From an uncultured virus (IMG/VR IMGVR_UViG_3300009136_000003) (taxonomy: Duplodnaviria > Heunggongvirae > Uroviricota > Caudoviricetes > Crassvirales), in the IMG/VR virus record IMGVR_UViG_3300009136_000003: 64,000 bases of DNA, one strand, 5' to 3'. Below are positions 1 to 64,000 of this stretch, in pieces (within the stretch, counting starts at the first letter, position 1; every line of letters begins with the position of its first letter). The notes below the pieces were generated by a model. That model made no database searches and had not been told where the DNA came from. It worked only from the letters and a program-made list of their open reading frames with translations. The position numbers and the translations under genes are program-made.

Positions 1-3000
1 GTTTCTAAGTCTGTTAAAAAAGCAAAAGGTTCTATAAATTTACGACAGTCTTCTAAAGATTTAAAAATAGATATAGAAAAGTATTTTACAAATCCAAAAA
101 CAAGCACGTTTGAAAAGAGAGGTTTTATTGTAAAGGATATTGTAGCAGATATTGCTAAAAACATAGAAAAAAATAAGCAAAAAGAAATTGCAAAACTTTT
201 AGGAGGTGATGTTTCTAAAAATGTAGGAGTAGGTAATACACCTAAAGGAGTTAAAAGCCCCGGTTCACAATCACTTGTTGATTTAATTGCTAAAGTAGCA
301 GCAGAAAAATTAACTAAAGGATTAAATGTAGGAGATGTTTATGCAGTCATAGAAATAAATAGTGAGGTTGAAGTAAAAGAAGATTCTCATCCAAGTTATC
401 CATTTCATATATCTTTAAAAAACGGTAGTAAACCTATATTGCATTTACCAAAAAACAGAGAATCAGGAAGTAAAGTCTTGGTTCAAAAAGGACAAGATGG
501 TAATTACAATCTTGATTATGCAGTTCGTAATGTGTCAGTAGTAGAAGGTCAGTTTAATAATGAAGCTGCATCAACAGCTGTTAAAAAAGGAACTGAAAGA
601 CGAAATGCTAAAAAGAAAAACACACCTCAGTCTCGTAAGCAAATAATAGGAGAGAATGCTGACCTAACGGCACTTAATCTTTCTTATAGCTTAAACTTAG
701 CAAAAGAAATAGAGCGAGTACAAAAACTAAGTTTTAGAGAAAAATTTAATGAAGCGAAGAAAGACAGAGATGTTTTGGAGTACATAAAAATGACCCCACA
801 AGAGGTGAGGTATATGACAGGTTGGGAACGTGGTGTAGATGACAAATGGAGATATGAATTACCTGACGGAAAAGTAACTGTAAGAGAAAAAGGAAAGTTT
901 AAATTATCAGATGTATATGACAGCAAAGGATTATATGACGCATACCCTCAATTAAAAGATATGCCTGTGGATGTTGACATTAGACAACAAGGTGCAGTAA
1001 ATGCTTGGTTTATACCAAGTAGCAAGTCTATAGAGATAAACGCAAAACCTGATTCTAACGTCACTAGCCTTTTAGTTCACGAGATACAACACGCTATTCA
1101 ATTTATTGAAGGGTTTGCTACAGGTGGAAATATGAGGTCTGCATTTGAGGCATACGAAAATACTGTTACCCCTGAAGAGAAAAAAGCAGAGCTAGAATTA
1201 AAGGAAGAGGTTGAAGTATTAAACAATTTAACAACGGTTCTTGAGGTAGGTAGTATTGATTTTGAAGGTATGTCTTTGGACGAGGTATTAAGTTTAGACT
1301 TTATACGAGAAAATTGGGATGCACTAGGACTTGAAAGTAAAGATGATGCCATAGATGTATATGAGTACGTTTATGATAACAATCCTGAAATAATAAGTAA
1401 GTTAAAGACTGATGAATATGGAGATAGTCTTGACTTATCAGGAGCAATGGATGAGGCTTATGAAATAGCAGGGCGTAAAAAAGCCGAGTACTCCGACAAG
1501 TATTCTACGTATGCATTATACCAAAGATTAGCAGGAGAGGTTGAGTCTCGTAATGTTGAGACACGATTTATGATGACAGAAAAGAAAAGAAGAAAAACTC
1601 TTTTGTCAGCAACAGAAGATGTAGCTGCAGAAGACCAAATATTATTATTCCCTGACCAACCTCAGTCTCGTAAGCAGAAAATAGGGAGAACTACAAGACT
1701 AGCTCCTAATGGAAAGCAATCTAACTTAACTGACGTGCAGTATGATGCTGTAAGAACGCCTGCGTTTAAGAAGTGGTTCGGTAATTGGGAGACAGACCCT
1801 GAGAATGCGAGTAAAGTAGTGGACGAGAATGGTGAGCCTAGAGTTGTATGGAGAGGCAGGGACACAAGTAAAGGTGATGTTGGAGATGTAATAGATATTG
1901 GAAAAACCAATGAGGGTGCTTTCTTTGCTGATAATAAAGAGGCTTCCGATTTGTTTATGTCTGAGTTTTTAGGAATTAAAAAAGGTGATTATGAAATAAT
2001 TGAATCGTTTTTAAACATAAGAACCCCGGAAGTATTTGAAGATTTTTGGAATGATTTTATGGGTAATAGAAATTCTAATAAACCTAATTATAAATACGAA
2101 CCAAAAAAAGGTGTTGATGGAGCTATAATAAATGATGACGTTTGGCTACAAGAATCAGAAATAGATTGGAAAGAAGGGCAGTTTGATGAAAATGGTAATC
2201 AATTAGAAGAAGAGGTTATTAAAGAAATCGCTTTAGAAGGCAAGCAATTTATTGTTTTTAAACCTAACCAAATAAAATCAGCCGATGGCAGCAACACTAC
2301 TTTTGACCCAAACAAGCCGTCTATACGTAAGCAACAAGACGACAGCAAAGAGGTTAGTGAAATAGAGGGTGAGATTCAATATTTAGAATCCGAGATTGCA
2401 GACAAGCAAGAGGAAATTGCGGCTGAAAAATCTGATACCAAGGATGACATACAGAAAAAGAAGGATGAGATAGCTAAGGTAAAGAAAAGCAAAAAGTCTC
2501 CTGCCAAAAAAAGAGATTTAATTGAAGATATAAAACAAGAGATTGAAGATATAAAAGAAGACGGACTAGTAAACGTAGAGTATTACATTGAGGAGGTAAA
2601 GGAAGCTAAGAGAGAATTAAAAAAGCAAGAGAAAAAGTTAGCTAAATTAAAAACAAAGCCTGCACCTAAGTCTAAGCCTAAGCCTAAGCCTGCACCTAAG
2701 CCTAAGCCTAAGCCTGCACCTAAGCCTAAAAAATCTAACAATACATATCGTTCATCTTGGTCAGGTAGTTTAGATACATCAATAGAAGTATCTGAAGATT
2801 ATAATCAGATGACCGACCAATATAGAGAGAAAAACAAACAAATAAACCTTGCTAATGGAGAAGATGTAATAACTATAGAAGAGGCTAATAAATTAAAAAT
2901 AGAGCTTCGAGATAATTTAAAGAAAGCAAAATTAAAATTTGAAGAAGCAAAATCTAAGCCTGCACCTAAGCCTGCACCTAAGCCTAAAGCAAAAAAGATT

Positions 3001-6000
3001 TTAGAAGCCATTCCTGAAACAGGTGATGTGACGGCAGAAAACAAGATAACAATTGCAGATAACTTAAGGGCGATAACAAAAGGCGTGAAAACCGCTGTTG
3101 TTTCTTGGATGCGTACAAGTAAGTTCCTAGCACAAGAGATAGGCTCAATGGTTAAGTCCGGTAGGATAACAGTTAAGCAGTCGGCAGCTATACTCAAAAA
3201 GTTTAGTGGTGTCAATATGTTTAACGAGGCTTCTATAGATAGGTTTGTAGATTTTATGGCTCGTGTTATTAATAACGCAGAATATGCAGAGCAGTTATCT
3301 ACCGCAAGAAAAAATATTAAACGAGCTAAGAAAAACATTAGAACTAAGATAGGTAGTGCAGATGCTGTAGCACCTATGCTATCTCAGATTTTTGATGTTA
3401 ACCCATCACTAATACCTGAGTCTGTATGGAAGATTTATACTGACCTAGTTGCTGACTTTGCAGGAAGCGGAGCTGTTATATCCCCTAGTAATGTAGAATC
3501 TGTATCACTAATTGCAGGTGATATTATCGACTCATTAAATGCAGAGTTTTCACAGACTGAAGAGTTAGGAAATAGATACGATGCCTTTGACAAAGTACTA
3601 GACAAGAAGACAGGAGCTGTAGACTACGCTGCTACTATAAAAAAGATGGAGAAGGAAGGTTTGATTACACCGGAGGAACTATCTATAATGTCAAAGTATA
3701 GAACCGATATAGCACCTCCAACTCCTAAGACACCAAAAACAAAGGCTGAGATACAGGCAGAAAAGGATGCTATTATAAAAGACATTAAAGGCTCACCTAC
3801 ATTAAAAATATCTAACATTAATAATAAGTTGGATAGAGCTGTAGCGGATAGGTTTGTTTCTCTGATGGCAACCCCTGAAGTGTTGGAGTCTATGTCATTG
3901 AAAGACTTACAGCAAATTCAAAAGTTAATGGATAACATTAACAATGGATACCTACCTCACCTTGCACAGATACAAGTAGAGAAAATGAGTAGCGTCTTGA
4001 ATTCTAATATATTAACAAGTGCAATACAAGGCAGTAAGCTACTACCTGCGTCTGCTATTTATGGTAGATTAAAAAGTCTAGTAACAAAGAGAGGTGCTAT
4101 TAGTGAGATGATAAGAAGGAATCCTTTGTTTTATATTGACCAAATTTTTGGAGATTTTAAAACTAAAGATATTTTTAACTCTGTATTTAATCAATCAGCT
4201 ATAGCTCAGGAAAGATATCAGGCTGATATTAAAAAGATATTTGGTAGAATTGACAAGGCACAAAACTCTGTAGCTAAAACATACCGTAGAAATCCAAATG
4301 GTTTAGTGAGGTCTAAGTTTAAGCAGATGATTTATTCCATTCAGCTTGAAGCAGAAAGCAACCTTGGTAATCCTGAAGTGAATCAGGCAGGTGCTTATAT
4401 AAAGAAAACTATAGAGGCTATAATGGACGGCAAGACAACATTCACAAAACGTGATGCTGATATGCTTAATGAAATATACAATGAGTTTGAGGTTAATGGT
4501 GAGATAGATATTAATAAGTTGTATGATTCTTTTTCTAAAGTAGAGAAGGCTTCTATAAAAGAAATACAAGACATCAACATTGAGCTTCAAGAGAAGGCAG
4601 TCTTTACAAGTGCAGTTATTCGTGGTGATAGAATGAACCCAAGAAATAATTACACTCACTTAAACGTAATAACAGCAGCCGGTAAAGATAACCTAGCTGC
4701 ACCTTCAGAGGCACAGAAAATATTACAGAGTTTAAGACCTAGCACAAAAGCTAATTCTTTAATTGAAAGAACAGGTAATGTTGCTCCACTAAACTTTGAT
4801 TACTATGCATCTGCATCTAGGGGTGCTAAGGGTGTTCTCTTAGACTTTTATATGACAGAACCTATAAGAACAACTCACAGAACTTTAGACAGGACTAAGG
4901 AGTCTCTTAAAGATGGTTCTAATATGATGCCCGGAAATCAAAGAGAAAAGTTCAACGCTATTAGAGATTCTTTTGATGAGGTAATAGGTAACCTATATGT
5001 AAATGCCTTCACTCAAAACGGATTGGGAGATGCTGCATTAAAGTTTATGAACAGGAATGGATACCGTGCAATACTTGCTAGTAGCACTAGGTGGATAGCC
5101 GAGCTTACATCAAACACAGCGTTTGCTTTAATAACAAACCCAAGGGCGTTTACCATAGGAGCGAAGATAGGCCTTGGTTTCCTAAATAGTGACGCTGCAC
5201 CTAAAGCAATGAAGGTCTTGGGGTCTAAGCAAACCACACGTATATATCCTAGTGATTCTTTATCAGGTAGAATGGTAGACACCAACCTAATGAATCAAGC
5301 TCAGGGTGAAAAGGGAGGTAGAGTTAAGGGTAGATTTAAAAATAAGATGACACAAATTTGGAATCTAACAGGAGCAAAGTATGCAGGTAGTGTAGCTACT
5401 GTGTCTGATGCCTTGATATCTACACCCGATAAGATAGTTATGAGACCAATGTGGTTTGGTAGTTTTAGTGCGGAATTTGAAAAAATAACAGGACAAAAAC
5501 CTGACTTTGATAAGATAGCATCTGAAGACTCAGCATATATGTCAGAGAATGCAGCAGCATTAAAGGATGCCACAACAAAGGCTGATGAGACTTCTGTAAT
5601 GACAGGGTCAACTGCTAATCCTTTTATGGGGATACTCAAAGGACAATCAAAACCTGAAGATGGTTTGATGACCAAAGCATTTAATAACTTCAACACCTTT
5701 ATGACCACGTTCTTAATATACGAATATGTAACTGCTCGTACAGGTATTGTTAATGCAGTAGGTGGAGGTGTCCTAGGAAAGGCTAAGGGAGCACAATTGC
5801 TTGCAGGTTCAGCAACTCGTATGATTACATATACAATGCTAGCGACAGTATTAAGTGAGGCTTTAACAGGACTAGCAGGTGACGAACCTGAAGAGCAAAA
5901 AGCACCCGAAAAACAGCTTGGTCAGGCCATAGCTTCTACAGTTAGTTCTATGATGTTAGGTAGAGACTTTGGTAACGCTACAAAGGCAGTTATAAACTAT

Positions 6001-6699
6001 GGTATCGAAGAATTTAATAAGGAGTTTTTAGATTTTCTAAGAGATGGAGAGTATGACTCTTTTAAGGATGGTATTCAGTATCAGGTAGTTCCTCAAAACA
6101 AAGACGGAAGAGGTAGTGATATAGGTGACTTTATAAAAGCAATGTCAGCAGGTTATAGCCCTTTCATTAAGACTATAGACTTTATGATAGGCAAGGCAAC
6201 TGAAGCTCCTAAAGTAACTGAGGCGGCTAGAAAGAGACAGCAGGATGAGGTTATGATTAGATTACCTTTAGAGGTGTTGGGTAACACAGGTTTAATACCT
6301 CTATATAAGGATGTAAGGAAGATGGTACTTAGAAATCTTTATGGAGAGATGCGTAAGGCTAGTAATGAGTCTGCTAAAAGAAAAGCAAAAGAGTTAGATA
6401 AGTTACAGGGTTACAATAGCAGGAGTGATATGAAAAGGTATGACTACAGATTATGGATGGATACCTTCGGGCCAAACTCAATGGATTGGGATGAGGAGCA
6501 AAGAATAAAAGAGGAGAAGAGAAGATTGAGAGCTGCTAAACAGCGTATCAAAGATGAAGAAAACGGATACACAGGTAGAGGTACTAAGTCCGGATTTGGT
6601 AATAGTGGATTTGGTAATAGCGGATTTGGTAGCGGTGGTTCAAAAAGAAAAACTAAAAAGAAAGGTGGATTTGGTAATAGCGGATTTGGAACGAATTAA
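1..6699 (+). CDS. Giant polyvalent virion/ejection protein, C-terminal part (open from base 1, so 5'-truncated): module A', LPD23-like metallopeptidase cassette, ART-PolyVal-like cassette, coiled coil, PAPK linker, long helical C-terminal region, GFGNS tail
   Basis: Frame +1 is open from base 1 (VSKSVKKAKG...), so the TTG at 439 is not the true start. LPD23-type motifs: TGWERGVDDKWRYE, LYDAYPQL, HEIQHAIQ (1078-1092), YQRLAGEVESRNV. ART-PolyVal-type motifs: RTPAFKKWFGNWE, SKVVDENGEP, FIVFKPNQIKSA. Confidence 0.85.
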   Translation, partial: VSKSVKKAKGSINLRQSSKDLKIDIEKYFTNPKTSTFEKRGFIVKDIVADIAKNIEKNKQKEIAKLLGGDVSKNVGVGNTPKGVKSPGSQSLVDLIAKVAAEKLTKGLNVGDVYAVIEINSEVEVKEDSHPSYPFHISLKNGSKPILHLPKNRESGSKVLVQKGQDGNYNLDYAVRNVSVVEGQFNNEAASTAVKKGTERRNAKKKNTPQSRKQIIGENADLTALNLSYSLNLAKEIERVQKLSFREKFNEAKKDRDVLEYIKMTPQEVRYMTGWERGVDDKWRYELPDGKVTVREKGKFKLSDVYDSKGLYDAYPQLKDMPVDVDIRQQGAVNAWFIPSSKSIEINAKPDSNVTSLLVHEIQHAIQFIEGFATGGNMRSAFEAYENTVTPEEKKAELELKEEVEVLNNLTTVLEVGSIDFEGMSLDEVLSLDFIRENWDALGLESKDDAIDVYEYVYDNNPEIISKLKTDEYGDSLDLSGAMDEAYEIAGRKKAEYSDKYSTYALYQRLAGEVESRNVETRFMMTEKKRRKTLLSATEDVAAEDQILLFPDQPQSRKQKIGRTTRLAPNGKQSNLTDVQYDAVRTPAFKKWFGNWETDPENASKVVDENGEPRVVWRGRDTSKGDVGDVIDIGKTNEGAFFADNKEASDLFMSEFLGIKKGDYEIIESFLNIRTPEVFEDFWNDFMGNRNSNKPNYKYEPKKGVDGAIINDDVWLQESEIDWKEGQFDENGNQLEEEVIKEIALEGKQFIVFKPNQIKSADGSNTTFDPNKPSIRKQQDDSKEVSEIEGEIQYLESEIADKQEEIAAEKSDTKDDIQKKKDEIAKVKKSKKSPAKKRDLIEDIKQEIEDIKEDGLVNVEYYIEEVKEAKRELKKQEKKLAKLKTKPAPKSKPKPKPAPKPKPKPAPKPKKSNNTYRSSWSGSLDTSIEVSEDYNQMTDQYREKNKQINLANGEDVITIEEANKLKIELRDNLKKAKLKFEEAKSKPAPKPAPKPKAKKILEAIPETGDVTAENKITIADNLRAITKGVKTAVVSWMRTSKFLAQEIGSMVKSGRITVKQSAAILKKFSGVNMFNEASIDRFVDFMARVINNAEYAEQLSTARKNIKRAKKNIRTKIGSADAVAPMLSQIFDVNPSLIPESVWKIYTDLVADFAGSGAVISPSNVESVSLIAGDIIDSLNAEFSQTEELGNRYDAFDKVLDKKTGAVDYAATIKKMEKEGLITPEELSIMSKYRTDIAPPTPKTPKTKAEIQAEKDAIIKDIKGSPTLKISNINNKLDRAVADRFVSLMATPEVLESMSLKDLQQIQKLMDNINNGYLPHLAQIQVEKMSSVLNSNILTSAIQGSKLLPASAIYGRLKSLVTKRGAISEMIRRNPLFYIDQIFGDFKTKDIFNSVFNQSAIAQERYQADIKKIFGRIDKAQNSVAKTYRRNPNGLVRSKFKQMIYSIQLEAESNLGNPEVNQAGAYIKKTIEAIMDGKTTFTKRDADMLNEIYNEFEVNGEIDINKLYDSFSKVEKASIKEIQDINIELQEKAVFTSAVIRGDRMNPRNNYTHLNVITAAGKDNLAAPSEAQKILQSLRPSTKANSLIERTGNVAPLNFDYYASASRGAKGVLLDFYMTEPIRTTHRTLDRTKESLKDGSNMMPGNQREKFNAIRDSFDEVIGNLYVNAFTQNGLGDAALKFMNRNGYRAILASSTRWIAELTSNTAFALITNPRAFTIGAKIGLGFLNSDAAPKAMKVLGSKQTTRIYPSDSLSGRMVDTNLMNQAQGEKGGRVKGRFKNKMTQIWNLTGAKYAGSVATVSDALISTPDKIVMRPMWFGSFSAEFEKITGQKPDFDKIASEDSAYMSENAAALKDATTKADETSVMTGSTANPFMGILKGQSKPEDGLMTKAFNNFNTFMTTFLIYEYVTARTGIVNAVGGGVLGKAKGAQLLAGSATRMITYTMLATVLSEALTGLAGDEPEEQKAPEKQLGQAIASTVSSMMLGRDFGNATKAVINYGIEEFNKEFLDFLRDGEYDSFKDGIQYQVVPQNKDGRGSDIGDFIKAMSAGYSPFIKTIDFMIGKATEAPKVTEAARKRQQDEVMIRLPLEVLGNTGLIPLYKDVRKMVLRNLYGEMRKASNESAKRKAKELDKLQGYNSRSDMKRYDYRLWMDTFGPNSMDWDEEQRIKEEKRRLRAAKQRIKDEENGYTGRGTKSGFGNSGFGNSGFGSGGSKRKTKKKGGFGNSGFGTN
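625..641 (+). repeat. Cassette-boundary motif CCTCAGTCTCGTAAGCA (PQSRKQ), copy 1
   Basis: Exact 17-mer also at 1660, 62781 and 63231, always in the giant protein's reading frame. Confidence 0.95.
1659..2429 (+). repeat. 771-bp direct repeat of 63230-64000 (offset 61571 bp)
   Basis: Sequences match by eye, and the ORF track gives identical antisense ORFs at 1662..1910 and 63233..63481. The upstream flanks are unrelated. Confidence 0.95.
1660..1676 (+). repeat. Cassette-boundary motif (PQSRKQ), copy 2
   Basis: Exact 17-mer; identity with the window's 3' end starts here. Confidence 0.95.
2656..2730 (+). repeat. Coding tandem repeat AAGCCT/AAGCCTGCACCT giving a KPAPKPKP linker (second patch about 2956-2988)
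   Basis: Visible 6- and 12-bp units. Confidence 0.9.
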
Positions 6700-13798: not shown

Positions 13799-14533
13799 TT
13801 AAAGAAACTCATCATAATAAAAGGTTTCTATATCTAACTCAGCATCTGTGCTATAGAATTTATTGTAAACCTCTATAGCCTTCTCAACTTTAAATTCACC
13901 ACCCTTTACAAACTCTTCTGTTGGTCTGTATATACCCATCATACCATTGGTCTTGTCGATAACAACAAATATTAACGGCTTGCCAAAAAGTTTTTGGTAG
14001 ATGTAGCATTGGCTATCGTAGTTGTACTTACGAGCTGACCACTTAAAGTCTTCAATCTTTGATGTGGTCTTGATATCAATCACCATATCGGGGTGAACAA
14101 TATCTGCCTTACCTTTCCACATAACGCCTTTAATCTCAGCGATTGCAGGCACTTCATAGTTGTTATTAGGGTTTCTGATTAGGTCGTACATATCTAAGTT
14201 GCCCATTAGAACAGTAACAAGCTTTCTTAGTTCCTCGCCCTCCTTGTCTAGCAAAGCGAAAAGCACATCATTCTCTACACAGTATTCTTTGTATACTTTA
14301 GTGTTCCTTGATGATGAGTCTACGAACCTTACATTCTCAGCCTTCGATGGCTCAAGTATTAACTGATGAAAATACCTACCCTTAGCAAAATTTGCATTGT
14401 CGGGTAGGCTTATTCCATATTGCTTAGGATTAGTTAGTAACGTTCCTATATCTGAGTTAGACATATACTGCTTACCAAAGTCTCCGTAATAATCCTTATC
14501 GTCTCTTAGTCTTTCTATAGTTTCAGCGTGCAT
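13799..14533 (-). CDS. RecE/Exo VIII-like PD-(D/E)XK exonuclease (DUF3799 type)
   Basis: MSNSDI, GRYFH, WKGKAD, IDIKTT, YNYDSQCYIY. Confidence 0.8.
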   Translation of the reverse strand: MHAETIERLRDDKDYYGDFGKQYMSNSDIGTLLTNPKQYGISLPDNANFAKGRYFHQLILEPSKAENVRFVDSSSRNTKVYKEYCVENDVLFALLDKEGEELRKLVTVLMGNLDMYDLIRNPNNNYEVPAIAEIKGVMWKGKADIVHPDMVIDIKTTSKIEDFKWSARKYNYDSQCYIYQKLFGKPLIFVVIDKTNGMMGIYRPTEEFVKGGEFKVEKAIEVYNKFYSTDAELDIETFYYDEFL

Positions 14534-14538
14534 ATCTA

Positions 14539-15204
14539 TTAGGAATTAAGGATGTTAGATAGTTCTGTCTTTACAGGTGCAGATAGTACGTACTTACGCC
14601 CTACCATTGCTGTTAGCTTCTCGTTGCCTAGAGACTTGTTCTCTTTCACATACGCCATAACATTTTTCCAATTGTCATCACCCTTTTTTAAATTTAGCTT
14701 TGGTGCTTTCTTGTTCTGAACGCTTGTAGCCTTTGCTTTCTCCTGTGCCTCTACTACGTTGTTGTTATTTGATTCAGGCATATCCTCACCTGCGTATATA
14801 TAAATACCCATACCAAACATAGCTAGGTTCTTTACTAGGCATCTCATCATTGTCTTGTTTACGTCAAACATAGTCGCCCCTGCAACCTGCTTCTCTCCGT
14901 ACCTTGTGGTGAAGCTATAAGCCTCTTTCTTCATAGACTTGTTTGCACCGTCCATAACAGGAAGCCACATTGATAACGTCTCACCGTCTATAGTTACTGA
15001 CGAGTGACACATAAAGCCAAGTGCCTCATCGTACTCCGTCTCACCCATTTTGTAGGTGGCATCAGGACAAACCTTTTTTACTTCGCTCCAAGCCCACGCC
15101 CAAGATAGGTACGTGAGATTGTTTTTCTTTTCTGCTTTCGCATTTACATTAATCGCTGACAATTTTTCAAAGGTAGTCAGTTCCTTTTCTTTTGCTTTTG
15201 ACAT
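14539..15204 (-). CDS. Sak/Rad52-like single-strand annealing protein (DUF1071 type)
   Basis: EKKNNLTYLSWAWAW, MWLPVMD, RCLVKNLAMFGMGIYIYAGED. Confidence 0.85.
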   Translation of the reverse strand: MSKAKEKELTTFEKLSAINVNAKAEKKNNLTYLSWAWAWSEVKKVCPDATYKMGETEYDEALGFMCHSSVTIDGETLSMWLPVMDGANKSMKKEAYSFTTRYGEKQVAGATMFDVNKTMMRCLVKNLAMFGMGIYIYAGEDMPESNNNNVVEAQEKAKATSVQNKKAPKLNLKKGDDNWKNVMAYVKENKSLGNEKLTAMVGRKYVLSAPVKTELSNILNS

Positions 15205-18227: not shown

Positions 18228-18730
18228 CTGTTTATTTTTTTTAATTCGTTTTGATATGCTTGTGATGCTTCTTTTTCGTTAACAAAACAACCTAAATGTT
18301 TTGATTTTCCATTTATATTTATAGATGCCCTCCATTTAGTTCGCCCTTTTTTTAAAAAAACGCCTGTATATTTTGAAGTTCCTTTTCTATCTTTTGATAA
18401 ATTTTTTCTATGTGTTATTACTTGTAAGTTGTAAAGTTTATTATTTAATTTATTAGTATCTATATGGTCTACAACCATTGTGTGTCCACAAGGTTTATGG
18501 TTTAAGAATGCAAAACCCATTAATTGATTAATAGTTCTTGTGTATCTTTTTTTATTTATATAGATACCTATTTGATAATATCCATTAGCACCAATTGGTT
18601 TTTTTAATATTCTTTCTTTCCCATACTTTAAACTTCTTGCATTTCCTAAGTTGCTTACTTGGTAACTTTCAAATTCAGGTATGGTTTTCCATACCTCTAT
18701 ACCTAATCTACTTAATAGTTTTGCTCTCAT
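18224..18730 (-). mobile_element. Free-standing NUMOD4-HNH-AP2 homing endonuclease gene
   Basis: EVWKTIP..YQVSNLGNARS (NUMOD4), VDHIDTNKLNNKLYNLQ (HNH), SKYTGV..KWRASININGKSKHLGCF..EKEASQAY (AP2). Confidence 0.9.
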
Positions 18731-23939: not shown

Positions 23940-25538
23940 ATGAATGAAATAGGATACTCTCCGAAAAATTTACATTTCGGAAATGAAGGCAGGAATAAAC
24001 TTATAAACGGCATTGAGGCAATGTCAAACGCAGTAAAGTCCACGTTAGGCCCTTCCGGGCAGACGGTTCTTATTGAGTCGCCAAGCCACACACACGGAAT
24101 AACTGTAACCAAGGATGGTGTTACTGTGGCAAAGTCGGTTGACCTGCTAGACCCTGTTGAGAACCTTGCGGTAAGGATGATGAAGGAGGCTGCTGACAGG
24201 ACTGCTACCTCAGCGGGTGATGGCACAACCACGGCTATAGTACTAACAGAGCAGTTGGTATTGGAGGGGGAGAGGCTTATCAGACATAAGGCCAACAAGA
24301 CTGAGGTGCTAAGAGAACTTGTTCAGAATACTAAAGATATTGTGTCACAACTAGAGAAGATGTCAAGGGCTGTTACAAAAGGGAGGCTACGTGACGTGGC
24401 AACTATTTCATCAAACAACGACACACACATTGGTGGGATAATCTCAAAGGTGTATAAGGGCGTTGGCAAGAATGGCATCGTGACTGTTGACCGTTCCCAA
24501 ACATCTGACACACACTTTGAGACCACTAATGGATTAAAGATTGAGAGAGGGTTCTCGTCAAACATATTCATAACAGACCAAAAAAAGGATGAATGTATAT
24601 TCGATGACGTTTATATACTTGTGTCGGACGCAGAGATAAGTAACATACTTCAAATTGAGAACGTATTAAAACCAATTCTAACAGACAACAAGAAGCTGCT
24701 TATTATTGCACCGTGCTCGACAAATGTTGTCAACACGTTGGCAGCCAATAAGATGAAGAGAGACATAAAGATTTGTACGATACCACCACCTAACTTTGGG
24801 TACAAGCAGCACGAGCTGATGCAGGACATTGCAATCTCTGTTGGTGCTACATACTACTCTGAGAAGACCGGTGATGACCTCAGCCTTATTGAGTTTAGTG
24901 ACCTAGGTTTTGCGGCCAAGGTTGTGGTTGACAGTACATCTACTATTATTGTAAAGGAGTCTATGGAAATATCTGAGGAGGTATCCGATAGGGTTGCACA
25001 ACTTCGTGAGCAGCATACTAATACAGACAGGAAGAGTGATAAGGAGTTTATTCTTTCAAGGATTGCTTCGCTTACAGGTGGTGTTGGAACAATATTCGTT
25101 GGGGGAAAGACTGACCTAGAGCACAAGGAGTTATACGACAGGGTCGATGATGCCGTGTGTGCAGTTCGTTCCGCTCTTGAGGAGGGTATACTACCCGGAG
25201 GTGGAGTGGCACTATATTACTTATCTAGGCAGTATGACCTGCCTGAAGCAAGTATAGCACAAAAAATGTTAAAAGCTGCACTCAAGTCTCCATTAATGCA
25301 GATATACGAGAACGCAGGTGTTGAGATAAACAAGGAAATATTAGAAGACCTAGACTTCTGTGAGCAAAACTACGGAATGAATGTCAAGACAGGTGAGTGG
25401 GGGGATATGTATAAGATGGGGGTCATTGACCCGCTGAAGGTAACCAAGTCAGCACTACAGAACGCTGTCTCTGTTGCGGTCAGTATACTGTCAACCAACG
25501 CTATTATAACACAGGCACGAACTTATGAGACAAACTAA
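23940..25538 (+). CDS. groEL: Phage chaperonin GroEL (Cpn60)
   Basis: TLGPSG, VTKDGVTVAK, AGDGTTTA, DRVDDA, EEGILPGGG, GVIDPLKV; no GGM tail. Confidence 0.95.
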   Translation: MNEIGYSPKNLHFGNEGRNKLINGIEAMSNAVKSTLGPSGQTVLIESPSHTHGITVTKDGVTVAKSVDLLDPVENLAVRMMKEAADRTATSAGDGTTTAIVLTEQLVLEGERLIRHKANKTEVLRELVQNTKDIVSQLEKMSRAVTKGRLRDVATISSNNDTHIGGIISKVYKGVGKNGIVTVDRSQTSDTHFETTNGLKIERGFSSNIFITDQKKDECIFDDVYILVSDAEISNILQIENVLKPILTDNKKLLIIAPCSTNVVNTLAANKMKRDIKICTIPPPNFGYKQHELMQDIAISVGATYYSEKTGDDLSLIEFSDLGFAAKVVVDSTSTIIVKESMEISEEVSDRVAQLREQHTNTDRKSDKEFILSRIASLTGGVGTIFVGGKTDLEHKELYDRVDDAVCAVRSALEEGILPGGGVALYYLSRQYDLPEASIAQKMLKAALKSPLMQIYENAGVEINKEILEDLDFCEQNYGMNVKTGEWGDMYKMGVIDPLKVTKSALQNAVSVAVSILSTNAIITQARTYETN

Positions 25539-26687: not shown

Positions 26688-26945
26688 ATGAGACCAATAG
26701 GAAAATATATATTAATCGATGAGATTAAGGAATCAGTAAAAACTGAGTCAGGATTAATCTTGGGTGCAGAGGAAGCTAACCTGCTAAGATACAAAAAAGG
26801 ATTTATACTTGAGGTAGGTAGTGATGTTTCTGTAATAAGCAAGGGAGATAGTATTTTCTATGACTCTCGTGCGGGTTATACTATGCTTATAGAAGAGAAG
26901 ATGTGTACGATAATTATGGAGAAGGATGTCGTTGTTGTCTTATAA
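26688..26945 (+). CDS. groES: Co-chaperonin GroES (Cpn10)
   Basis: MRPIGKYILI...KTESGLIL...GFILEVG...GDSIFY. Confidence 0.85.
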   Translation: MRPIGKYILIDEIKESVKTESGLILGAEEANLLRYKKGFILEVGSDVSVISKGDSIFYDSRAGYTMLIEEKMCTIIMEKDVVVVL

Positions 26946-37610: not shown

Positions 37611-38174
37611 ATGAAATCACCGTTCTTTTTTATAGCGACTCCTTTAAAGGGGAGGCGTTACAATAACACCAAAGATATTGGTGGGATTGAGTTTATAACA
37701 AGCACATCCGAAGAAGACCATAAGTTCTCTAACCGAGAGGCTATAGTTATGGAAGTCCCATTAGGGTATGAAGGCCCTATAAAGAAAGGTTACAAGCTTC
37801 TTGTACACCACAACGTATTCAAATTTTATAACGACATTAAAGGTGCTAGGAAAAGCGGAAGAAGTTTTTTTAAAGACAACTTGTTTTTTATTGAACCTGA
37901 CCAATTTTTCCTATATCACGATGGAAAAGAATGGCATACCTACGACAGGTATTGCTTTGTTAAGCCTATAAAAAAAGAAGATTCCTATCTTTATAAGAAT
38001 ACTAAAGAAGAACCCTTAGTTGGCTTGATTAAGTTTCCAAATAAATACTTAATTAGTAAAGGTGTTAGTAAGGGTGATAAGGTTTGTTTTCAACCTGACA
38101 GCGAATATGAGTTTGAGGTAGATGGTGAAAAATTATACCGTATGTATGACCACCAAATAACTATGGTACTATGA
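37611..38174 (+). CDS. Possible tandem GroES-fold protein
   Basis: Two segments resembling GroES (AIVMEVP..IKKGYKLLVH; VGLIKF..VSKGDKVCF..EFEVDGEKLYRM). Confidence 0.5.
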   Translation: MKSPFFFIATPLKGRRYNNTKDIGGIEFITSTSEEDHKFSNREAIVMEVPLGYEGPIKKGYKLLVHHNVFKFYNDIKGARKSGRSFFKDNLFFIEPDQFFLYHDGKEWHTYDRYCFVKPIKKEDSYLYKNTKEEPLVGLIKFPNKYLISKGVSKGDKVCFQPDSEYEFEVDGEKLYRMYDHQITMVL

Positions 38175-58265: not shown

Positions 58266-61200
58266 ATGGCAATACAAGAAATATATTACACCACTCCAAA
58301 CGGAATGAAGATGAGTCAGACCGAGGCATTAGAACGCTACGGTAGTGAACAGTTTGATGCATTGGTTAACGAAGGTCAGTTAGTAGAATTTATTCAAGAA
58401 GAAGACCCTGAATTAAACCAAGGAGATAGTTTCTACGAATCACCCAATGGAAATGTTTATACCGAAGGTGATTTAGCAAATCGATATGGTCTTGAAGCAT
58501 TTAACAAATTAATAGACGAAGGTCATTTAAAAAAAAAAGATTCTCCTCAAGAAGTATCAAGCTTTGGGGGTGGAGATTTAGAGCCAACAGAGACTTTACC
58601 ATATCAAGATTTACCTGAACCTACTGAACAAGATTTTTTTGAGGGTGGATTTGGGGATGCACTAAGAGGATTTGATGCTATAGTACCTCTAGGTATTGGA
58701 GACTTTATAGATGATATGACTCGTGCTGTTGCAGGTGGTATAAACCAAGGTATTGCAGGAGAGAACGCATCAGACCTTTTGTTCGCAGGGTCAATGGCTA
58801 CGGATGAGGATATCGCTAGCTATATTGAAGCCAATCAAAACGCTCAAAAGTATGGGTCTTCTCAGGAAATGCAGGAGTACCAAAAAACCTACGAAGAATA
58901 TGGAGGTGTTTTAGGTGTTGTTATGGGTCTTGCTAAATCAGGATTAACAATACTACCCGAAATAATGTTAAGCTCATTTGCTGCTATGGCAGCCAACTCA
59001 GATGCTTTGGCTGCGGGAGGAACAATTGTTGGAGGTAGTGCAACAGCAGGTGCTTTAACAGCAGGTGCAGGAGCATCCGTTGTTGTTCCTGTAGTTGGAA
59101 CAGTAGTAGGAGCAGCAGCCGGAGCTATTACAGGAGCAGCAGCATCGTTACCTTATGCATTTGCTGCGGCTAGTACGGCATTAGAAATGGGTGCTACTTT
59201 CTCTGAACTACTTCAAGGAGAAATTGATGGAGAATTAACTCCTGAAAAAATTAAGGCAGCCTTAAGCAACGAAAAAACTTACACAAGCATTAGAAACAAA
59301 GCAGTTGCAAGGGGTATTACTATAGGTGCTCTTGATATGCTTTCAGGTAAAGTAGGTGGTAGAATTGCATCTTCTGTATTAAAAAAAGGTGCGAGAGCTA
59401 CAGGCATATCGTCAAGGGCTACAAAAATAAAGGCAGTAGCTGCGGCAAGTGCTGTAGAAGGAGTAGGTGGTTCAATAGGTGAGACTGCAGGTATTGCGGC
59501 AACTAATATAATTGGTGATACTAAAGGTCAGGATTTTGACATCTCTGAGATTATACTTGAAGGTATAGCTGAAATACCCGGTGGTGTAAAGGATATGGTT
59601 TCTGCTAGGTTTAGTAAACCTAAATATAAAGTAAACGGAGAAAGAGTTGATGCGGCTACCATAGACAGTATGATAGAAACAATGACTCTAGAGCAGCTTA
59701 CCGAAAGTAGGATACAAATAGACAACGATTACGAGGGGAGAGATGCTGCATTGCAAGATAGAAAAGTAACACTATCTATAGAAAATCAGGTAAGAAAAGT
59801 AATACCCAATATTACTCCTGAAGCTGTTACTGAGATAGTTACGTTACAGAAAGAACTACAATCACTTGAAGGAAACAAAACCGAAGTAGGTAAAAAAAGA
59901 GCGTCAGAAATTAGAGGTTCAATTAATGAAATTATGACCAATGAAACTGCAGAAGCAGGTGTCGTTGAGGTAACAGATGAAGCGGTTGTTGCTAGAATAA
60001 AAGAGATTAAAGGTGACGACTCTGCTTACACTCAAGAAGAGTTTGACAATATTAAAAAAATATTAGAGGCTGAAAATGAAGCTCAATTAGTAGAGGCACA
60101 AGAGGAACAGGTAATAACAAGTACTGAAGAGTTTAGAGGACTTGAACAGTCAGAACAAATAGATTACCTAGAGAAGGCAACTAAAGAATTAGCAGCAGAG
60201 GCTGAAGCAGGTGGTAAAGTAGATTTTGAAATAACAGAATCACAAGCCTTGACAAGAGCAAATCAATTATTCCAAGATAATAAAAATGAAATAGGTAGAC
60301 AAGAAAGGTTAGACAGTAGAGCGGAGAAAGAGAAAAAACAATTTGGAGAACAACACGCTGATGAGAAACTACCTTACGAAAAAGGTGCTGATGGAAAAGG
60401 AAGAGCTAAACTATACGACATTACAAAACCTAATGAGAAAGGAGTTGTTACTGCCGAGTATGTAAATCCCGAAACAGGAGTTGTAGACGTTATAATTAGC
60501 GGACAAAATGATGATAATTTTGTAGGGTATGTTAGGGTTTATGAAAACGGTAAGCCAACAAATATGTTTACTGCTAAGATGGAGTCAACAGGAGACGCTT
60601 TCAAAGATATGATTACCGATGCTGAGGCTAAACTTCCTGACAACGCAGAGGTTGTTGAAACAACATCGATATCTATAGACGGATTAAAGTCATCTAGTAA
60701 ATCAAAGCGAACAGAAAAAGTAGACGCTGATGGAAATGTTGTAACAAGACCAACGCCATATAGTGCCGCTACAAAAGAGTCTGTAGCAAGTGCCAAAGGA
60801 ACTGACACAAATCCTTTTGAAAACTTTAAAACTACTGATAAAGCTGCAGCAGAAGCAGAGGTCGCTAAGATTGAAGCTGCATATCCGGGGATAACTGCAA
60901 CAATAAATAAACGAAAAGGGCCTCCTGCTCCTCCACCTAGACCGGGGACAAAAGACAAAGCTTCTGCTAAAGCAAAGCCTGAATATACAGTTTCTGTAAA
61001 CCTTCCTGTTTTAGTGTCACCTAAATCAAACAACAAAACAAAAGTAGAAACAGATGCCGTTAAAAATTCACGTAAGCAACAATCTAAAGTTGAGCAGCAG
61101 GTAGACAACGCTAGAAAGGCTTTGAAAACTATTGACAATGAGATTAAAGTGGTGTATCATACTGACGATGCGTCTTACCGAGATGCTACAAACGAACAGT

Positions 61201-64000
61201 CAAGGGAGCAGTCTACTAATGGGGAGTATAATCCTACGACTAAAACCATACACATAAACGGAACGAAGGCTAATAACAAAACAGTAGCACACGAGGTGTT
61301 CCACGCATTGCTGTTGAGGACAGGGATAACTAACGAGCAGGCTAAGGCTATTACGGATAAAATGCTAAAAGCGGTGAAGAAGACTGCATCGCCTGAGTTG
61401 ATTGAAAAATTAGAAAAGTTCTCTAGCAATTATAAATCCTCACTACAGAGCGAGGAGAGTATAGCGGAGTTGTTTGGGTTACTAGCATCAGAGTATCCGA
61501 ACCTAGACGCACCTACTCAGAGTATAGTAAAGAGATGGCTTGATAAGATAGCTAAGATACTAAGGCTTAAGCCATTTACTGACGCTGAGGTTATTGACTT
61601 ACTAAATGCGGTGTCTGCAAAGGTTGAGGCAGGACAAGAGATTACAGAGCAGGATGTTGCTATACTAGATGGTAGTGTTAGTGGTGTTATAAATACAAAA
61701 GCGAGAAAGCAAGCCTCTGTATTAACAAGTTTTACTTTGAAAAGGTTTCCTACAAATACAAATATAAAGTTATCGGAGGATACTCCTTTAAGTGATTTCA
61801 ATGAAAAAAAATCCAACCTACTTGAATCGGATAGAATGACAGGAGCTTTTATAGCTGATGCTAATAATAATCCTGTGTTTAAATTCTTTGGTGGAATATA
61901 CTTCCCACAGATAACAGGTAAGTGGTGGGCATCTAGAACTATTTCTAAGGCGAATGGGGTAGCCAAGAATATGAACGCTAATAGAGACAAGGATGGTTAT
62001 ATTTATGCAACACCAATCATAATGAAGCCGAACTCTCATATGAGTAATCAAGATATGTTTGAGACTGTGTGGGAGTTTATGAAGTTTGATTTAAGGTCAA
62101 AGTCTAGTAAGGTAACTAAGAAGTTATTTCACGAATACTTAACCAAAGCTCTTACATTAAAATCAGTAAACTTATCTGAATCGGACTTAAATATAAAAAA
62201 GTCTGACAACATAGAAGTAATGATTAGTAAGCTAAACGATGTTTTACTAGGCAAAGAAATAGATAATCTTAATTATGATTCTACTAAACCTGAATCAATA
62301 GATAACGCTAAAACAATAATTAAAGAATCAAACCTTTCGTTTGAAAAAAGGAAGGCAATTATAAAAGGTATTTTAGGAGACCCTAAGATAACCGAAGACA
62401 GAAAGTTTCCAACGGCAGGTTCTATATCAGAAGTGGCATCTAAGTTTGAGGAAGAAAAAACTAAGCAGGCAACTAAACTTTGGGATGTAGTAATGCTGAT
62501 GAGAACAAAAGGAACTTTGTCTACAAAGGTTACTCCAAAGTCAGATGAATTTTACCATAAGTCATATCCTGCAGAGATATTTTCAGACCAAGAGATAGAG
62601 GTTTTCTTTTTAGATGGAGCTTATAATATAGACACAACATATCCTGTACTTACTCAGTCATCAGGAAAAGTTTTCTCGTGGAAGGAGTATTCTGAAAAAC
62701 ATCCATCAGCGGCAATGGCATTAAGTCAGTATGGTAGGACTGCTAAGTTATCACAAGCTAGTGGTGATATAGTAGCAAGCCCTCAGTCTCGTAAGCAGAA
62801 GCCTAACTACAAAATAGCAAAAATTAATACACCCAACACAACTATAAATGTTGTTGAAGGAGCAGGAACTGATAGTTTTGAGATAGCAACTAAAGATTAT
62901 AAAGCCACCGAAGGAGTAGAAGGCTCTACAATAATTGGTTTTGTTAAAAATAAAGATTTTCCGGGAGAAAAAAAGAAAGAAACAAGGGGAGAGATTTTTA
63001 TTCTTCAAGTAGGTGATAAAGGAAAAGGAACAGGTACTTCTTTAATGTTAGATGCATTAAGATTAATGAAAGAAAATGGAACAAAAACTGTTAAGTTTAC
63101 AGTTCCAAGTAAAGAAGGAAAACCATTTAATGAATCTTTAGTTCGTAAGGGATATATAAATTTACTTAAAGTAAGCGATAGAACCGGTACTTCTGAATAT
63201 GAAATAACAGATAAGGTTTTAGAAGACGCACCTCAGTCTCGTAAGCAGAAAATAGGGAGAACTACAAGACTAGCTCCTAATGGAAAGCAATCTAACTTAA
63301 CTGACGTGCAGTATGATGCTGTAAGAACGCCTGCGTTTAAGAAGTGGTTCGGTAATTGGGAGACAGACCCTGAGAATGCGAGTAAAGTAGTGGACGAGAA
63401 TGGTGAGCCTAGAGTTGTATGGAGAGGCAGGGACACAAGTAAAGGTGATGTTGGAGATGTAATAGATATTGGAAAAACCAATGAGGGTGCTTTCTTTGCT
63501 GATAATAAAGAGGCTTCCGATTTGTTTATGTCTGAGTTTTTAGGAATTAAAAAAGGTGATTATGAAATAATTGAATCGTTTTTAAACATAAGAACCCCGG
63601 AAGTATTTGAAGATTTTTGGAATGATTTTATGGGTAATAGAAATTCTAATAAACCTAATTATAAATACGAACCAAAAAAAGGTGTTGATGGAGCTATAAT
63701 AAATGATGACGTTTGGCTACAAGAATCAGAAATAGATTGGAAAGAAGGGCAGTTTGATGAAAATGGTAATCAATTAGAAGAAGAGGTTATTAAAGAAATC
63801 GCTTTAGAAGGCAAGCAATTTATTGTTTTTAAACCTAACCAAATAAAATCAGCCGATGGCAGCAACACTACTTTTGACCCAAACAAGCCGTCTATACGTA
63901 AGCAACAAGACGACAGCAAAGAGGTTAGTGAAATAGAGGGTGAGATTCAATATTTAGAATCCGAGATTGCAGACAAGCAAGAGGAAATTGCGGCTGAAAA
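58266..64000 (+). CDS. Giant polyvalent virion protein, N-terminal part (runs off the window): N-terminal repeats, Ala/Gly-rich hydrophobic region, zincin metallopeptidase, module A, GNAT cassette, ART-PolyVal-like cassette
   Basis: ATG at 58266 (MAIQEIYY). Absent from the ORF track, consistent with no stop before 64000. HEVFH at 61290-61304 plus EESIAE; GNAT motif DKGKGTGTSLMLDAL; same frame as the PQSRKQ motifs. Joined through the repeat it would be about 3334 aa. Confidence 0.88.
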   Translation, partial: MAIQEIYYTTPNGMKMSQTEALERYGSEQFDALVNEGQLVEFIQEEDPELNQGDSFYESPNGNVYTEGDLANRYGLEAFNKLIDEGHLKKKDSPQEVSSFGGGDLEPTETLPYQDLPEPTEQDFFEGGFGDALRGFDAIVPLGIGDFIDDMTRAVAGGINQGIAGENASDLLFAGSMATDEDIASYIEANQNAQKYGSSQEMQEYQKTYEEYGGVLGVVMGLAKSGLTILPEIMLSSFAAMAANSDALAAGGTIVGGSATAGALTAGAGASVVVPVVGTVVGAAAGAITGAAASLPYAFAAASTALEMGATFSELLQGEIDGELTPEKIKAALSNEKTYTSIRNKAVARGITIGALDMLSGKVGGRIASSVLKKGARATGISSRATKIKAVAAASAVEGVGGSIGETAGIAATNIIGDTKGQDFDISEIILEGIAEIPGGVKDMVSARFSKPKYKVNGERVDAATIDSMIETMTLEQLTESRIQIDNDYEGRDAALQDRKVTLSIENQVRKVIPNITPEAVTEIVTLQKELQSLEGNKTEVGKKRASEIRGSINEIMTNETAEAGVVEVTDEAVVARIKEIKGDDSAYTQEEFDNIKKILEAENEAQLVEAQEEQVITSTEEFRGLEQSEQIDYLEKATKELAAEAEAGGKVDFEITESQALTRANQLFQDNKNEIGRQERLDSRAEKEKKQFGEQHADEKLPYEKGADGKGRAKLYDITKPNEKGVVTAEYVNPETGVVDVIISGQNDDNFVGYVRVYENGKPTNMFTAKMESTGDAFKDMITDAEAKLPDNAEVVETTSISIDGLKSSSKSKRTEKVDADGNVVTRPTPYSAATKESVASAKGTDTNPFENFKTTDKAAAEAEVAKIEAAYPGITATINKRKGPPAPPPRPGTKDKASAKAKPEYTVSVNLPVLVSPKSNNKTKVETDAVKNSRKQQSKVEQQVDNARKALKTIDNEIKVVYHTDDASYRDATNEQSREQSTNGEYNPTTKTIHINGTKANNKTVAHEVFHALLLRTGITNEQAKAITDKMLKAVKKTASPELIEKLEKFSSNYKSSLQSEESIAELFGLLASEYPNLDAPTQSIVKRWLDKIAKILRLKPFTDAEVIDLLNAVSAKVEAGQEITEQDVAILDGSVSGVINTKARKQASVLTSFTLKRFPTNTNIKLSEDTPLSDFNEKKSNLLESDRMTGAFIADANNNPVFKFFGGIYFPQITGKWWASRTISKANGVAKNMNANRDKDGYIYATPIIMKPNSHMSNQDMFETVWEFMKFDLRSKSSKVTKKLFHEYLTKALTLKSVNLSESDLNIKKSDNIEVMISKLNDVLLGKEIDNLNYDSTKPESIDNAKTIIKESNLSFEKRKAIIKGILGDPKITEDRKFPTAGSISEVASKFEEEKTKQATKLWDVVMLMRTKGTLSTKVTPKSDEFYHKSYPAEIFSDQEIEVFFLDGAYNIDTTYPVLTQSSGKVFSWKEYSEKHPSAAMALSQYGRTAKLSQASGDIVASPQSRKQKPNYKIAKINTPNTTINVVEGAGTDSFEIATKDYKATEGVEGSTIIGFVKNKDFPGEKKKETRGEIFILQVGDKGKGTGTSLMLDALRLMKENGTKTVKFTVPSKEGKPFNESLVRKGYINLLKVSDRTGTSEYEITDKVLEDAPQSRKQKIGRTTRLAPNGKQSNLTDVQYDAVRTPAFKKWFGNWETDPENASKVVDENGEPRVVWRGRDTSKGDVGDVIDIGKTNEGAFFADNKEASDLFMSEFLGIKKGDYEIIESFLNIRTPEVFEDFWNDFMGNRNSNKPNYKYEPKKGVDGAIINDDVWLQESEIDWKEGQFDENGNQLEEEVIKEIALEGKQFIVFKPNQIKSADGSNTTFDPNKPSIRKQQDDSKEVSEIEGEIQYLESEIADKQEEIAAE
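62781..62797 (+). repeat. Cassette-boundary motif (PQSRKQ), copy 3
   Basis: Exact 17-mer. Confidence 0.95.
63230..64000 (+). repeat. Direct repeat of 1659-2429, starting at PQSRKQ copy 4 (63231-63247)
   Basis: Identical to the end of the window. Confidence 0.95.

Follow-up and report, generated by a model that had tools for sequence, protein, structure and literature searches.

Why does one short nucleotide sequence recur, always in the same reading frame, between unrelated domains of a giant phage protein? The question is raised by a stretch of 64,000 nucleotides from an uncultured virus (IMG/VR record IMGVR_UViG_3300009136_000003), referred to here as the window, whose two ends carry parts of a giant gene for a polyvalent protein in which effector domains follow one another as cassettes. 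Scanning the window, we found the 17-mer CCTCAGTCTCGTAAGCA (PQSRKQ) exactly at 625, 1660, 62781 and 63231 on the + strand, each time in frame within the open-ended open reading frames (ORFs) 58266..63998 and 1..6699, as the first-pass annotation of these letters had stated, and no further match in the window at up to 3 mismatches. Shuffled sequences give an expectation of 0.10 copies per window, and 0 of 100 shuffles reach four. The copies at 1660 and 63231 lie in one 771-bp repeat, so that the four exact matches, correctly reported, amount to only three independent copies. The conserved element is also longer than the 17 nt first assigned to it: it covers ~24-26 nt, GAC GCA CCT CAG TCT CGT AAG CAG (DAPQSRKQ), followed by AA in the consensus, with information content over ~26 nt. 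The best explanation, to which we give a probability of about 0.65, is that this element acts as a built-in crossover site for effector cassettes and that the peptide it encodes doubles as a processing site.

In the window, all sites of this kind lie on the + strand and at domain ends. The full element occupies 619-642 (NTPQSRKQ, end of an F8-type domain; proteins were cut at RKQ and the pieces clustered into families, F0 and so on), 1654-1677 (DQPQSRKQ, end of the LPD23 cassette), 62775..62798 (GCA AGC CCT CAG TCT CGT AAG CAG, ASPQSRKQ) and 63225..63248 (GAC GCA CCT CAG TCT CGT AAG CAG, DAPQSRKQ). A degenerate site, PSIRKQ, ends the ART-PolyVal cassette at 63888-63905 and again at 2317-2334. 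Two further sites flank the HExxH domain: NSRKQ at 61065..61079 precedes it and has the cassette-type codons CGT AAG CAA, while KARKQ at 61698..61712 follows it and is written with the ordinary codons AGA AAG CAA. These are the degenerate xxxRKQ boundaries that had been placed near 61062, 61695 and 2317. The 8-mer CGTAAGCA occurs seven times on the + strand of the window, each time as an in-frame RKQ site of the giant gene, and 0 times on the - strand, the expectation being 0.65 per strand. No inverted-repeat or attC-like structure was found at the element, and its flanks are unrelated.

How these sites are arranged depends on how the two ends of the window are joined. The N-terminal 1,911 codons of the giant gene (58266..64000, +) are open at the window end and encode, in order, a conserved N part, the 211-amino-acid (aa) HExxH domain F0 (61080..61712; HEVFH ... 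ESIAELFG, with RKQ on each side), the 362-aa domain F1 (61713..62798), the 150-aa cassette F7 (62799..63248) and the 219-aa ART-PolyVal cassette F6 (63249..63905). The C-terminal part of the same gene (1..6699, +, stop at 6697-6699) opens with the C-terminal 214 aa of an F8-type domain (1..642) and the 345-aa LPD23/HExxH cassette F9 (643..1677); the ART-PolyVal cassette at 1678..2334 is identical to that at 63249-63905 and is followed by the conserved C part. The two ORFs match phrog_32588 (1,686 positions) at 107-509 for the end ORF and 877-1673 for the start ORF, which identifies them as halves of one gene. They share an exact 771-bp repeat on the + strand (1659..2429 = 63230..64000), the second copy being cut by the window end and the identity beginning 1 base upstream of the motif. 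The distance between the repeat copies, 61,571 bp, gives a genome of ~61.6 kb; the contigs of relatives measure ~60-64 kb. When 58266-63230 is spliced to 1660-6699, the resulting allele encodes 3,334 aa (3,253-3,272 aa in relatives).

The window ends therefore most likely hold two alleles of one ~3,330-aa gene, F1|F7|ART (allele 1) and F8|LPD23|ART (allele 2, bases 1-1658, the shared sequence starting at 1659). In relatives, F1 and F8 take one and the same position (slot 3) behind the HExxH domain, and none of the 35 metagenome and 2 IMG/VR contigs tabulated has two such slot-3 domains. We also considered a single gene holding both ends with two ART cassettes; in every relative, however, either F1 or F8 can fill the one slot, and we rejected the idea on that ground. 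The first-pass annotation had assigned all cassettes to one protein, against which the slot-3 alternation and the 771-bp repeat speak. We read the presence of two alleles in one record as the product of an assembly going more than once round a mixed population. Note that diverged double ART domains exist in two distant relatives (L028, L030), so the two-allele reading is likely, not proven.

To place the element in a wider set of genomes, IMG/VR was scanned for the 17-mer, which gave 11 loci. Four of them, from 3 contigs, encode DAPQSRKQ within a giant ORF; the other 7 have stops in the motif frame within 60 codons and were treated as chance. A scan of metagenomes for the exact 17-mer gave 78 loci, 40 of them in frame in ORFs of at least 250 aa; leaving out 5 that repeat a contig, these represent 35 contigs. 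The remaining 38, with in-frame ORFs of 10-191 aa, were again treated as chance. Relative contigs carry 1-4 exact copies each (35 metagenome and 3 IMG/VR contigs), and within the 35 every further copy is in frame with the first.

The relatives share a common layout: a conserved N part, F0 (211-226 aa), one slot-3 domain (F1, F8, F11 or F19), variable cassettes and a conserved C part. The element bounds ~25 cassette families, and most have no Pfam family; those with a Pfam name are ART-PolyVal (F5, F6, F14, F29), LPD23 (F9), SAM methyltransferase (F18), GNAT (F24) and DUF7178 (F17, F33). Up to six or more cassettes stand inside one ORF. Among 37 contigs or alleles we counted 29 visible orders and 60 distinct adjacencies, where "visible" is to be taken literally since many loci end at the 4-kb flank. 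The cassette F7, for example, is found with three different neighbours on its left and four on its right.

Some relatives also contain very short units between two elements. An 18-aa "empty" unit, F4 (KTPIIPADISDAPQSRKQ), is present in L050, L059, L066, L082, L008 and L011; another, F22, in L038; 9-aa units (QDAPQSRKQ) in L064, L084, L086, L103 and L109; and 6-aa units (PTPRKQ) in L044 and L065. These may be scars of cassette loss or of slipped recombination. An RKQ-x14-RKQ pair is found in other lineages (L213, L214, L230, L247).

If cassettes are exchanged at the element, then homology between related genomes should break there. In an all-against-all megablast (at least 90% identity over at least 200 bp) we obtained 441 distinct internal ends of high-scoring segment pairs (HSPs). 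Of these, 142 fall within 5 nt of the core and 191 (43%) within 15 nt, against 1.2% and 2.2% for random positions. A test on pairs drawn from 92 cassette-border sites with 150-nt flanks found 65 pairs sharing only the left flank, 59 sharing only the right and 28 sharing both; in the one-sided pairs, exact identity on the side that differs ends within 0-12 nt of the 18-nt core. Together with the 29 orders, this bears out the expectation set down with the first-pass annotation that changes in domain content should break at the motif.

One whole cassette has moved between diverged backbones. F7 is 97.7% identical in L047 (HSP 62777-63250), while the C parts of the window and L047 are 65-68% identical; it is 96.8% identical in L038 (62781-63249) and 98.1% in L035 (62771-63249), these HSPs end at elements, and its neighbours differ in each of the three relatives. 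Conversely, over 2326-6363 the window shares 97.5% identity with four contigs (L092, L094, L089, L040), whose homology to it resumes at 2326, the CGT of PSIRKQ; two of them, L092 and L094, are also 98.5% identical to it over 59414-61052, yet carry F0|F19|C.

Independent contigs agree with this picture. Of the 31-mers of 60500-64000, 21-61% are present in each of twenty metagenome runs (marine, seawater or brine), which come from ten studies, and contigs built with k=31 from four runs of four studies (X1, X3, X6 and X7 among the run handles) were compared with 58266-64000. One X1 contig covers 61613-62797 and continues with letters matching the start of the LPD23 cassette (11/12 by eye); in another, the final 30 bases of the LPD23 cassette lead into a stretch identical to 63231-64000, so that the two together give a third combination, F1|LPD23|ART. 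An X6 contig runs from 63247 straight into the LPD23 start (25/26). Further joints lead from 62800 to 63222 and from 63255 to 63883 in X3, from 61645 to 63226 in X6, from 62798 to 63257 in X6 with 26 other letters between, ending in CGTAAGCA, and from 61070 to 63907 in X7. In X3 a 32-nt spacer is followed by a second element, an arrangement that resembles the 18-aa unit F4 of relatives, and in X3 record 15 and X7 record 29 hundreds of bases next to F7 do not match. At the NSRKQ site, too, run contigs break or join (61070, 61077); other loose contig ends lie away from any element, e.g. at 61642, 62605, 63410 and 63790. Junctions of non-adjacent cassettes at the element, which had been named as something to look for, are thus present in contigs of public runs.

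Codon-level conservation is specific to the cassette boundaries. It had been noticed at the outset that the copies use the same codons, including CGT though AGA is commoner, and in the crude ORF set of the window CGT makes up 0.158 of Arg codons as against 0.515 for AGA; from window codon usage, the probability of the exact 17-mer given PQSRKQ is 0.0045. Listing every RKQ with its codons in the ORFs of relatives, we found two kinds of site. Cassette-border sites (DAPQSRKQ, PSIRKQ, PQTRKQ, ESRKQ, PTPRKQ) almost always read CGT AAG CAR; sites flanking the HExxH domain (KPRKQ before it; ARKQ, DRKQ or LSRKQ after it) mostly read AGA AAR CAA. CGTAAG writes RK at 92 of 125 RKQ sites of the relatives and at 26 of 369 RK without a following Q.

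These relatives were found through the 17-mer itself, so that every metagenome contig has at least one exact copy by construction. We also examined a set assembled independently of the motif, from an IMG/VR scan with an alignment of the HExxH domain (80 loci, 77 distinct giant ORFs). There, CGTAAG is used at 33 of 81 RKQ sites more than 400 aa beyond the start of the HExxH domain, at 0 of the 18 sites that directly follow the domain and at 3 of the 12 that directly precede it, with a background for RK of 33/672. The synonymous positions are thus held in both sets, as a codon-constrained element predicts. The lineages of this set differ before RKQ (PAKRKQ, TPRKQ, PSIRKQ, PQTRKQ; some have RQQ) and often keep CGT AAG CAG; lineages whose HExxH domains are only 40-50% identical still have the core CGTAAGCAG, preceded by another 5' extension. 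A same-codon test gave 349/360 for the motif and 11555/13531 for the cassette body, a result inflated because the metagenome contigs were found by the exact 17-mer, and we give it little weight. In the same ascertainment-biased set, cassette pairs with only 59% same codons at identical residues have the same motif codons in 50 of 50 cases.

The element may also act through its peptide. In the 77 ORFs, RKQ occurs 117 times where 29.5 are expected from composition, and the five permutations of the tripeptide occur 24-32 times each. RKQ is enriched, stands at domain ends and flanks the HExxH domain with ordinary codons, all of which points to a role of the peptide. That embedded zincin-like peptidases process polyvalent proteins has been predicted in print (PMC5512222). 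F0 is a candidate processing metallopeptidase, and it may be this domain that cleaves at RKQ. The zincin domain announced by the first-pass annotation is present as far as its HExxH is concerned, HEVFH and ESIAELFG being invariant in 10 F0 sequences; its assignment to a peptidase fold is tentative. Pfam returns Astacin, M78 and M91, all below cut-off (E 0.006-0.09), a search against the PDB returns IrrE at E 1.8, and the AlphaFold2 (AF2) model (predicted local distance difference test, pLDDT, 65.9; C-terminal linker below 50) has no Foldseek match at E≤0.001. In a VIA comparison the model matches PPEP-2, lethal factor and an IrrE-like regulator at Z 4.8-5.4, with many helical structures matching as well. 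The LPD23 cassette (643-1677) has an HExxH of its own (HEIQH), so that some alleles have two candidate metallopeptidase domains.

Taken together, breakpoints, transfer and codons support the crossover reading at the population level, as judged by comparison of sequences, and the earlier proposal of a crossover site for gain, loss and swapping of cassettes can be kept. We envisage that each cassette ends with one in-frame ~24-26-nt element. The element is the only sequence common to unrelated cassettes, so recombination between co-infecting relatives would resolve there, and whole cassettes could be inserted, lost, replaced or reordered with frame and domains intact. Joining would proceed by ordinary short-homology recombination or annealing. 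A plausible agent is the phage's own pair of genes, a Sak-like single-strand annealing protein (14539..15204, -; phrog_659, E 2e-56) and the adjoining exonuclease VIII-like exonuclease (13799..14533, -; phrog_412, E 3e-28): both genes are present, and their link to the element is conjectural. Repeated use of the element, or direct selection on it, may then keep it uniform. After packaging or injection, xRKQ would be cut by the embedded HExxH domain or another protease, and the cut cassette would become a free effector.

Several points weigh against this scheme. All evidence of exchange is comparative and comes from contigs, and a shared 26-nt repeat is a place where an assembler might in principle form chimeras. 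About half of the HSP ends (230/441) are more than 200 nt away from the nearest element and represent ordinary divergence of the backbone. Near the post-HExxH site the breaks fall ~35-50 nt upstream of RKQ rather than at it, and in several relatives that site reads KRFQ, SRLQ or GRES. The peptidase fold of the HExxH domain is not established. In the motif-independent set, 48 of the 81 distal RKQ sites are without CGT AAG. A length of 24-26 nt is short for annealase-driven recombination, and plain use of homology would not obviously require that the core CGTAAGCAG be retained in diverged lineages.

Could selection on the protein alone account for the data? DAPQSRKQ might be kept as a protease site or linker, joins might occur anywhere with only between-domain recombinants surviving, and nucleotide identity might reflect recent descent. 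The ~4-fold enrichment of RKQ in the motif-independent set, the different codons at RKQ sites beside the HExxH domain and the processing by embedded peptidases predicted in the available portion of PMC5512222 would all fit, as would a GC-rich lineage in which RAAEQRV(A)D stands at indel boundaries with varying codons (L185, L188). However, domain selection would permit joins anywhere in variable linkers, and the shared identity is lost within 0-12 nt of the core; of 125 RKQ sites, 92 have CGT AAG where the background is 7%, and in the unbiased set it is found at 33/81 against 0/18; and motif codons agree in 50/50 cases where the bodies share 59%, though in the ascertainment-biased set. We consider this account unlikely. 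Selection on translation, with CGT AAG slowing ribosomes at the domain boundaries of a 3,300-aa protein and recombination being incidental, has in its favour that CGT is a minority Arg codon of the phage (0.158) and that the sites stand at domain ends. It leaves unexplained why CCT CAG TCT and GAC GCA are also held, why AGA is used at RKQ sites beside the HExxH domain and why homology breaks at the element, and we give it hardly any credence.

A dedicated site-specific system, in which a nuclease or recombinase of phage or host recognises CGTAAGCAG in an in-frame analogue of an integron or shufflon, would explain why the core is kept despite its different 5' extensions (PAKRKQ, TPRKQ, PSIRKQ) and an HExxH identity of only 40-50%, why the 8-mer CGTAAGCA is confined to the giant gene and to one strand, and why short "empty" units of 6, 9 and 18 aa stand between two elements. 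The phage does have a free-standing HNH endonuclease gene in its replication module (18224-18730, -; phrog_99, E 2e-26), but nothing ties it to the element; neither inverted repeats nor an attC-like structure accompany the site; and PHROG scans of 55 window ORFs (E≤1e-5) show no integrase, invertase or transposase, 26 of the 55 being without any match, so that a recombinase could be hidden among them. We regard such a system as distinctly improbable. In a bolder form of the same idea, which we also hold to be unlikely, the element would be an "in-frame integron" site whose core CGTAAGCAG is recognised by a phage-encoded nuclease or annealing machinery and whose same six codons form a protease site releasing each captured cassette. 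If this were true, any element-flanked domain would be a plug-in anti-host effector shared across a marine phage clade, cassettes would be captured, lost and reordered frequently in co-infection or within concatemers, and the two-allele ends of the window could stem from a hetero-allelic concatemer.

Finally, the mixed orders and the double end of the window might be chimeras formed at a short shared repeat in mixed populations. The window itself resembles more than one lap through such a population, and the relatives are all metagenome or k=31 contigs. Against this, at ~26 nt the element falls short of k=31, and a false join would require additional chance identity, which makes it unlikely but not impossible. 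Moreover, orders recur in independent samples, F4|F2|F5 in L050, L059, L066, L082, L008 and L011 and F0|F19|C in L092 and L094; cassettes 97-98% identical in backbones 66% identical cannot arise by mis-joining the reads of one population; and frame is kept in all joins. An assembly artefact is thus very unlikely, and exchange at the element, with its peptide as a possible processing site, remains our preferred reading.

The element is specific to one clade. A viral scan with a single-sequence C part yielded 0 relatives and an alignment-based scan 80 loci; RKQ arrays occur in only 3 of the 80 loci found via the conserved C part, and the 3,860-aa homologue of MW202828 has no RKQ. The GC-rich lineage of the giant-protein family has its own recurring RAAEQRV(A)D with varying codons, at residues 1195, 1394 and 1924 of the L185 ORF and 1201, 1462, 1661 and 2149 of L188, where an extra ~261-aa segment stands between two copies; this peptide may be a linker or cleavage motif of cassette borders in its own right, independent of the element.

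Which known systems does this protein resemble? It is a polyvalent protein sensu Iyer et al. 2017, with several unrelated effector domains: ART-PolyVal and LPD23 in the window, to which relatives add methyltransferase, GNAT, DUF7178 and more ART. In the portion available to us, Iyer, Burroughs, Anand, de Souza and Aravind (2017; PMC5512222) describe such proteins of phages and conjugative elements, note their mosaicism and mention possible recombinational variability for one system. The likeness lies in a giant multi-domain phage protein with ART-PolyVal and LPD23 and an embedded HExxH domain (PMC5512222); the difference is that the same portion of the article names no junction or cleavage motif, whereas here an in-frame ~24-26-nt element, held at the level of codons, bounds every cassette and falls where homology breaks. 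The MARTX toxins of Vibrio, as far as the accessible parts of the sources go, likewise have conserved N and C regions, central modular effectors, an internal protease that releases them and a content that varies between strains through gene exchange (PMC4453568, PMC6315884, PMC5555677). Conserved ends, a variable central array and a content differing between close relatives are seen here too: L092 and L094 match the window at 98.5% in the N part and 97.5% in the C part and have different cassettes. Pfam searches of both halves (E≤0.01) found no RTX repeats and no cysteine protease domain, and the carrier is a phage virion-module gene whose target is presumably a bacterium. For MARTX, we know of no single conserved nucleotide element at every junction.

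In polymorphic toxins, a demarcating motif, VENN in CdiA and PxxxxDPxGL in Rhs, separates the constant part from variable modules; it provides homology for module swapping and in Rhs is also the site of autoproteolysis. By analogy, the dual role proposed here, swap homology and cleavage, would resemble that of the Rhs motif. Neither VENN nor PxxxxDPxGL is found at the junctions, where the peptide is (D)APQSRKQ or xRKQ. Polymorphic toxins have one variable C-terminal tip and orphan cassettes with immunity genes; in contrast, the giant gene holds a multi-cassette array in one ORF, with no immunity genes, no silent cassettes in the window genome (the 8-mer is only in the giant gene) and exchange apparently between phage genomes. 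The giant protein thus works like MARTX and polymorphic toxins and is a member of neither. PeSL shuffling in T4-type phages and the boundary sequences of lambdoid phages are further precedents, in which short conserved sequences at module borders are recombination junctions between related phages. Those sequences are intergenic and regulatory; the element described here is coding and in frame and shuffles domains within a single gene. In the papers searched we found no mention of the PQSRKQ peptide and no description of such a junction element.

Polyvalent proteins are thought to be the first weapons injected, and the rapid diversification of their domain sets has so far not been tied to a mechanism. 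The locus supplies a sequence rule, namely that one short, in-frame, codon-conserved element marks every cassette border, where related marine genomes differ. It opens to test how domain shuffling inside an ORF stays in frame and whether co-occurring phages share an effector pool, and xRKQ is a candidate cleavage site to seek in virion proteomes. Searching with the element yields ~25 families that can serve as a list of candidate domains for anti-defence or host takeover in Flavobacteriia phages; the element itself is a natural design for payload swapping in a phage protein.

In the two halves of the giant gene, Pfam matches at E≤0.01 are limited to ART-PolyVal, LPD23 and a weak DUF4817. The first-pass calls of ART-PolyVal for the 219-aa cassette ending in PSIRKQ (E ~2e-11 at both ends, 45 bits against a cut-off of 31.2) and of an LPD23-like HExxH cassette of 345 aa (E 1.8e-8, 34.5 bits against a cut-off of 27) hold. 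The LPD23 core is ~31% identical to proteins of Pseudomonas phage F116-like phages. F1 has no Pfam family and alternates with F8, F11 and F19 in relatives. The 150-aa cassette F7, described at first as GNAT-like, is not confirmed as such: it has no Pfam match even at E≤10, only a weak atlas lead and an AF2 model (pLDDT 37.5) too poor for a fold search, and in a BLASTP comparison with the Pfam-supported GNAT cassette F24 only the shared DAPQSRKQ aligns.

The window is best explained as a ~61.6-kb podovirus of marine Flavobacteriia, with the giant gene last in the structural module, after the structural and tail-fibre genes. PHROG matches include terminase, portal, virion structural and tail-fibre proteins, GroEL/GroES, helicase, primase and the HNH endonuclease. 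The terminase is 45% identical to those of podoviruses of Flavobacterium, Cellulophaga, Tenacibaculum and Maribacter (genomes ~60-62 kb) and 75% identical to that of the uncultured 60,850-bp podovirus MW202828. The nearest record, G001, is a fragment of 16.5 kb that lacks both the motif and the giant gene; a megablast of the giant gene against 50,697 phage records gave no match, and with the C half tblastn matched only effector domains, in phages that are not related, and found nothing cultured that is related in the conserved parts.

Other features of the window are of separate interest. The N terminus of the giant protein (58266-58700) has two ~50-aa repeats (TPNG...YG..F..L...G.L) followed by a Gly/Ala-rich hydrophobic stretch, and run contigs differ in this region by an insertion of 3 nt and a skip of 151 nt. 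An ORF at 19138-20274 (-) has a gamma-glutamyl cyclotransferase-like domain (phrog_2520, E 2e-20) and is a possible auxiliary metabolic gene. The + strand also encodes a full-length GroEL-like chaperonin (23940-25538; phrog_5725, E 3e-136) and two GroES-like co-chaperonins (26688-26945 and 37611-38174), an unusual equipment for a ~61-kb podovirus that may be linked to the folding of giant proteins.

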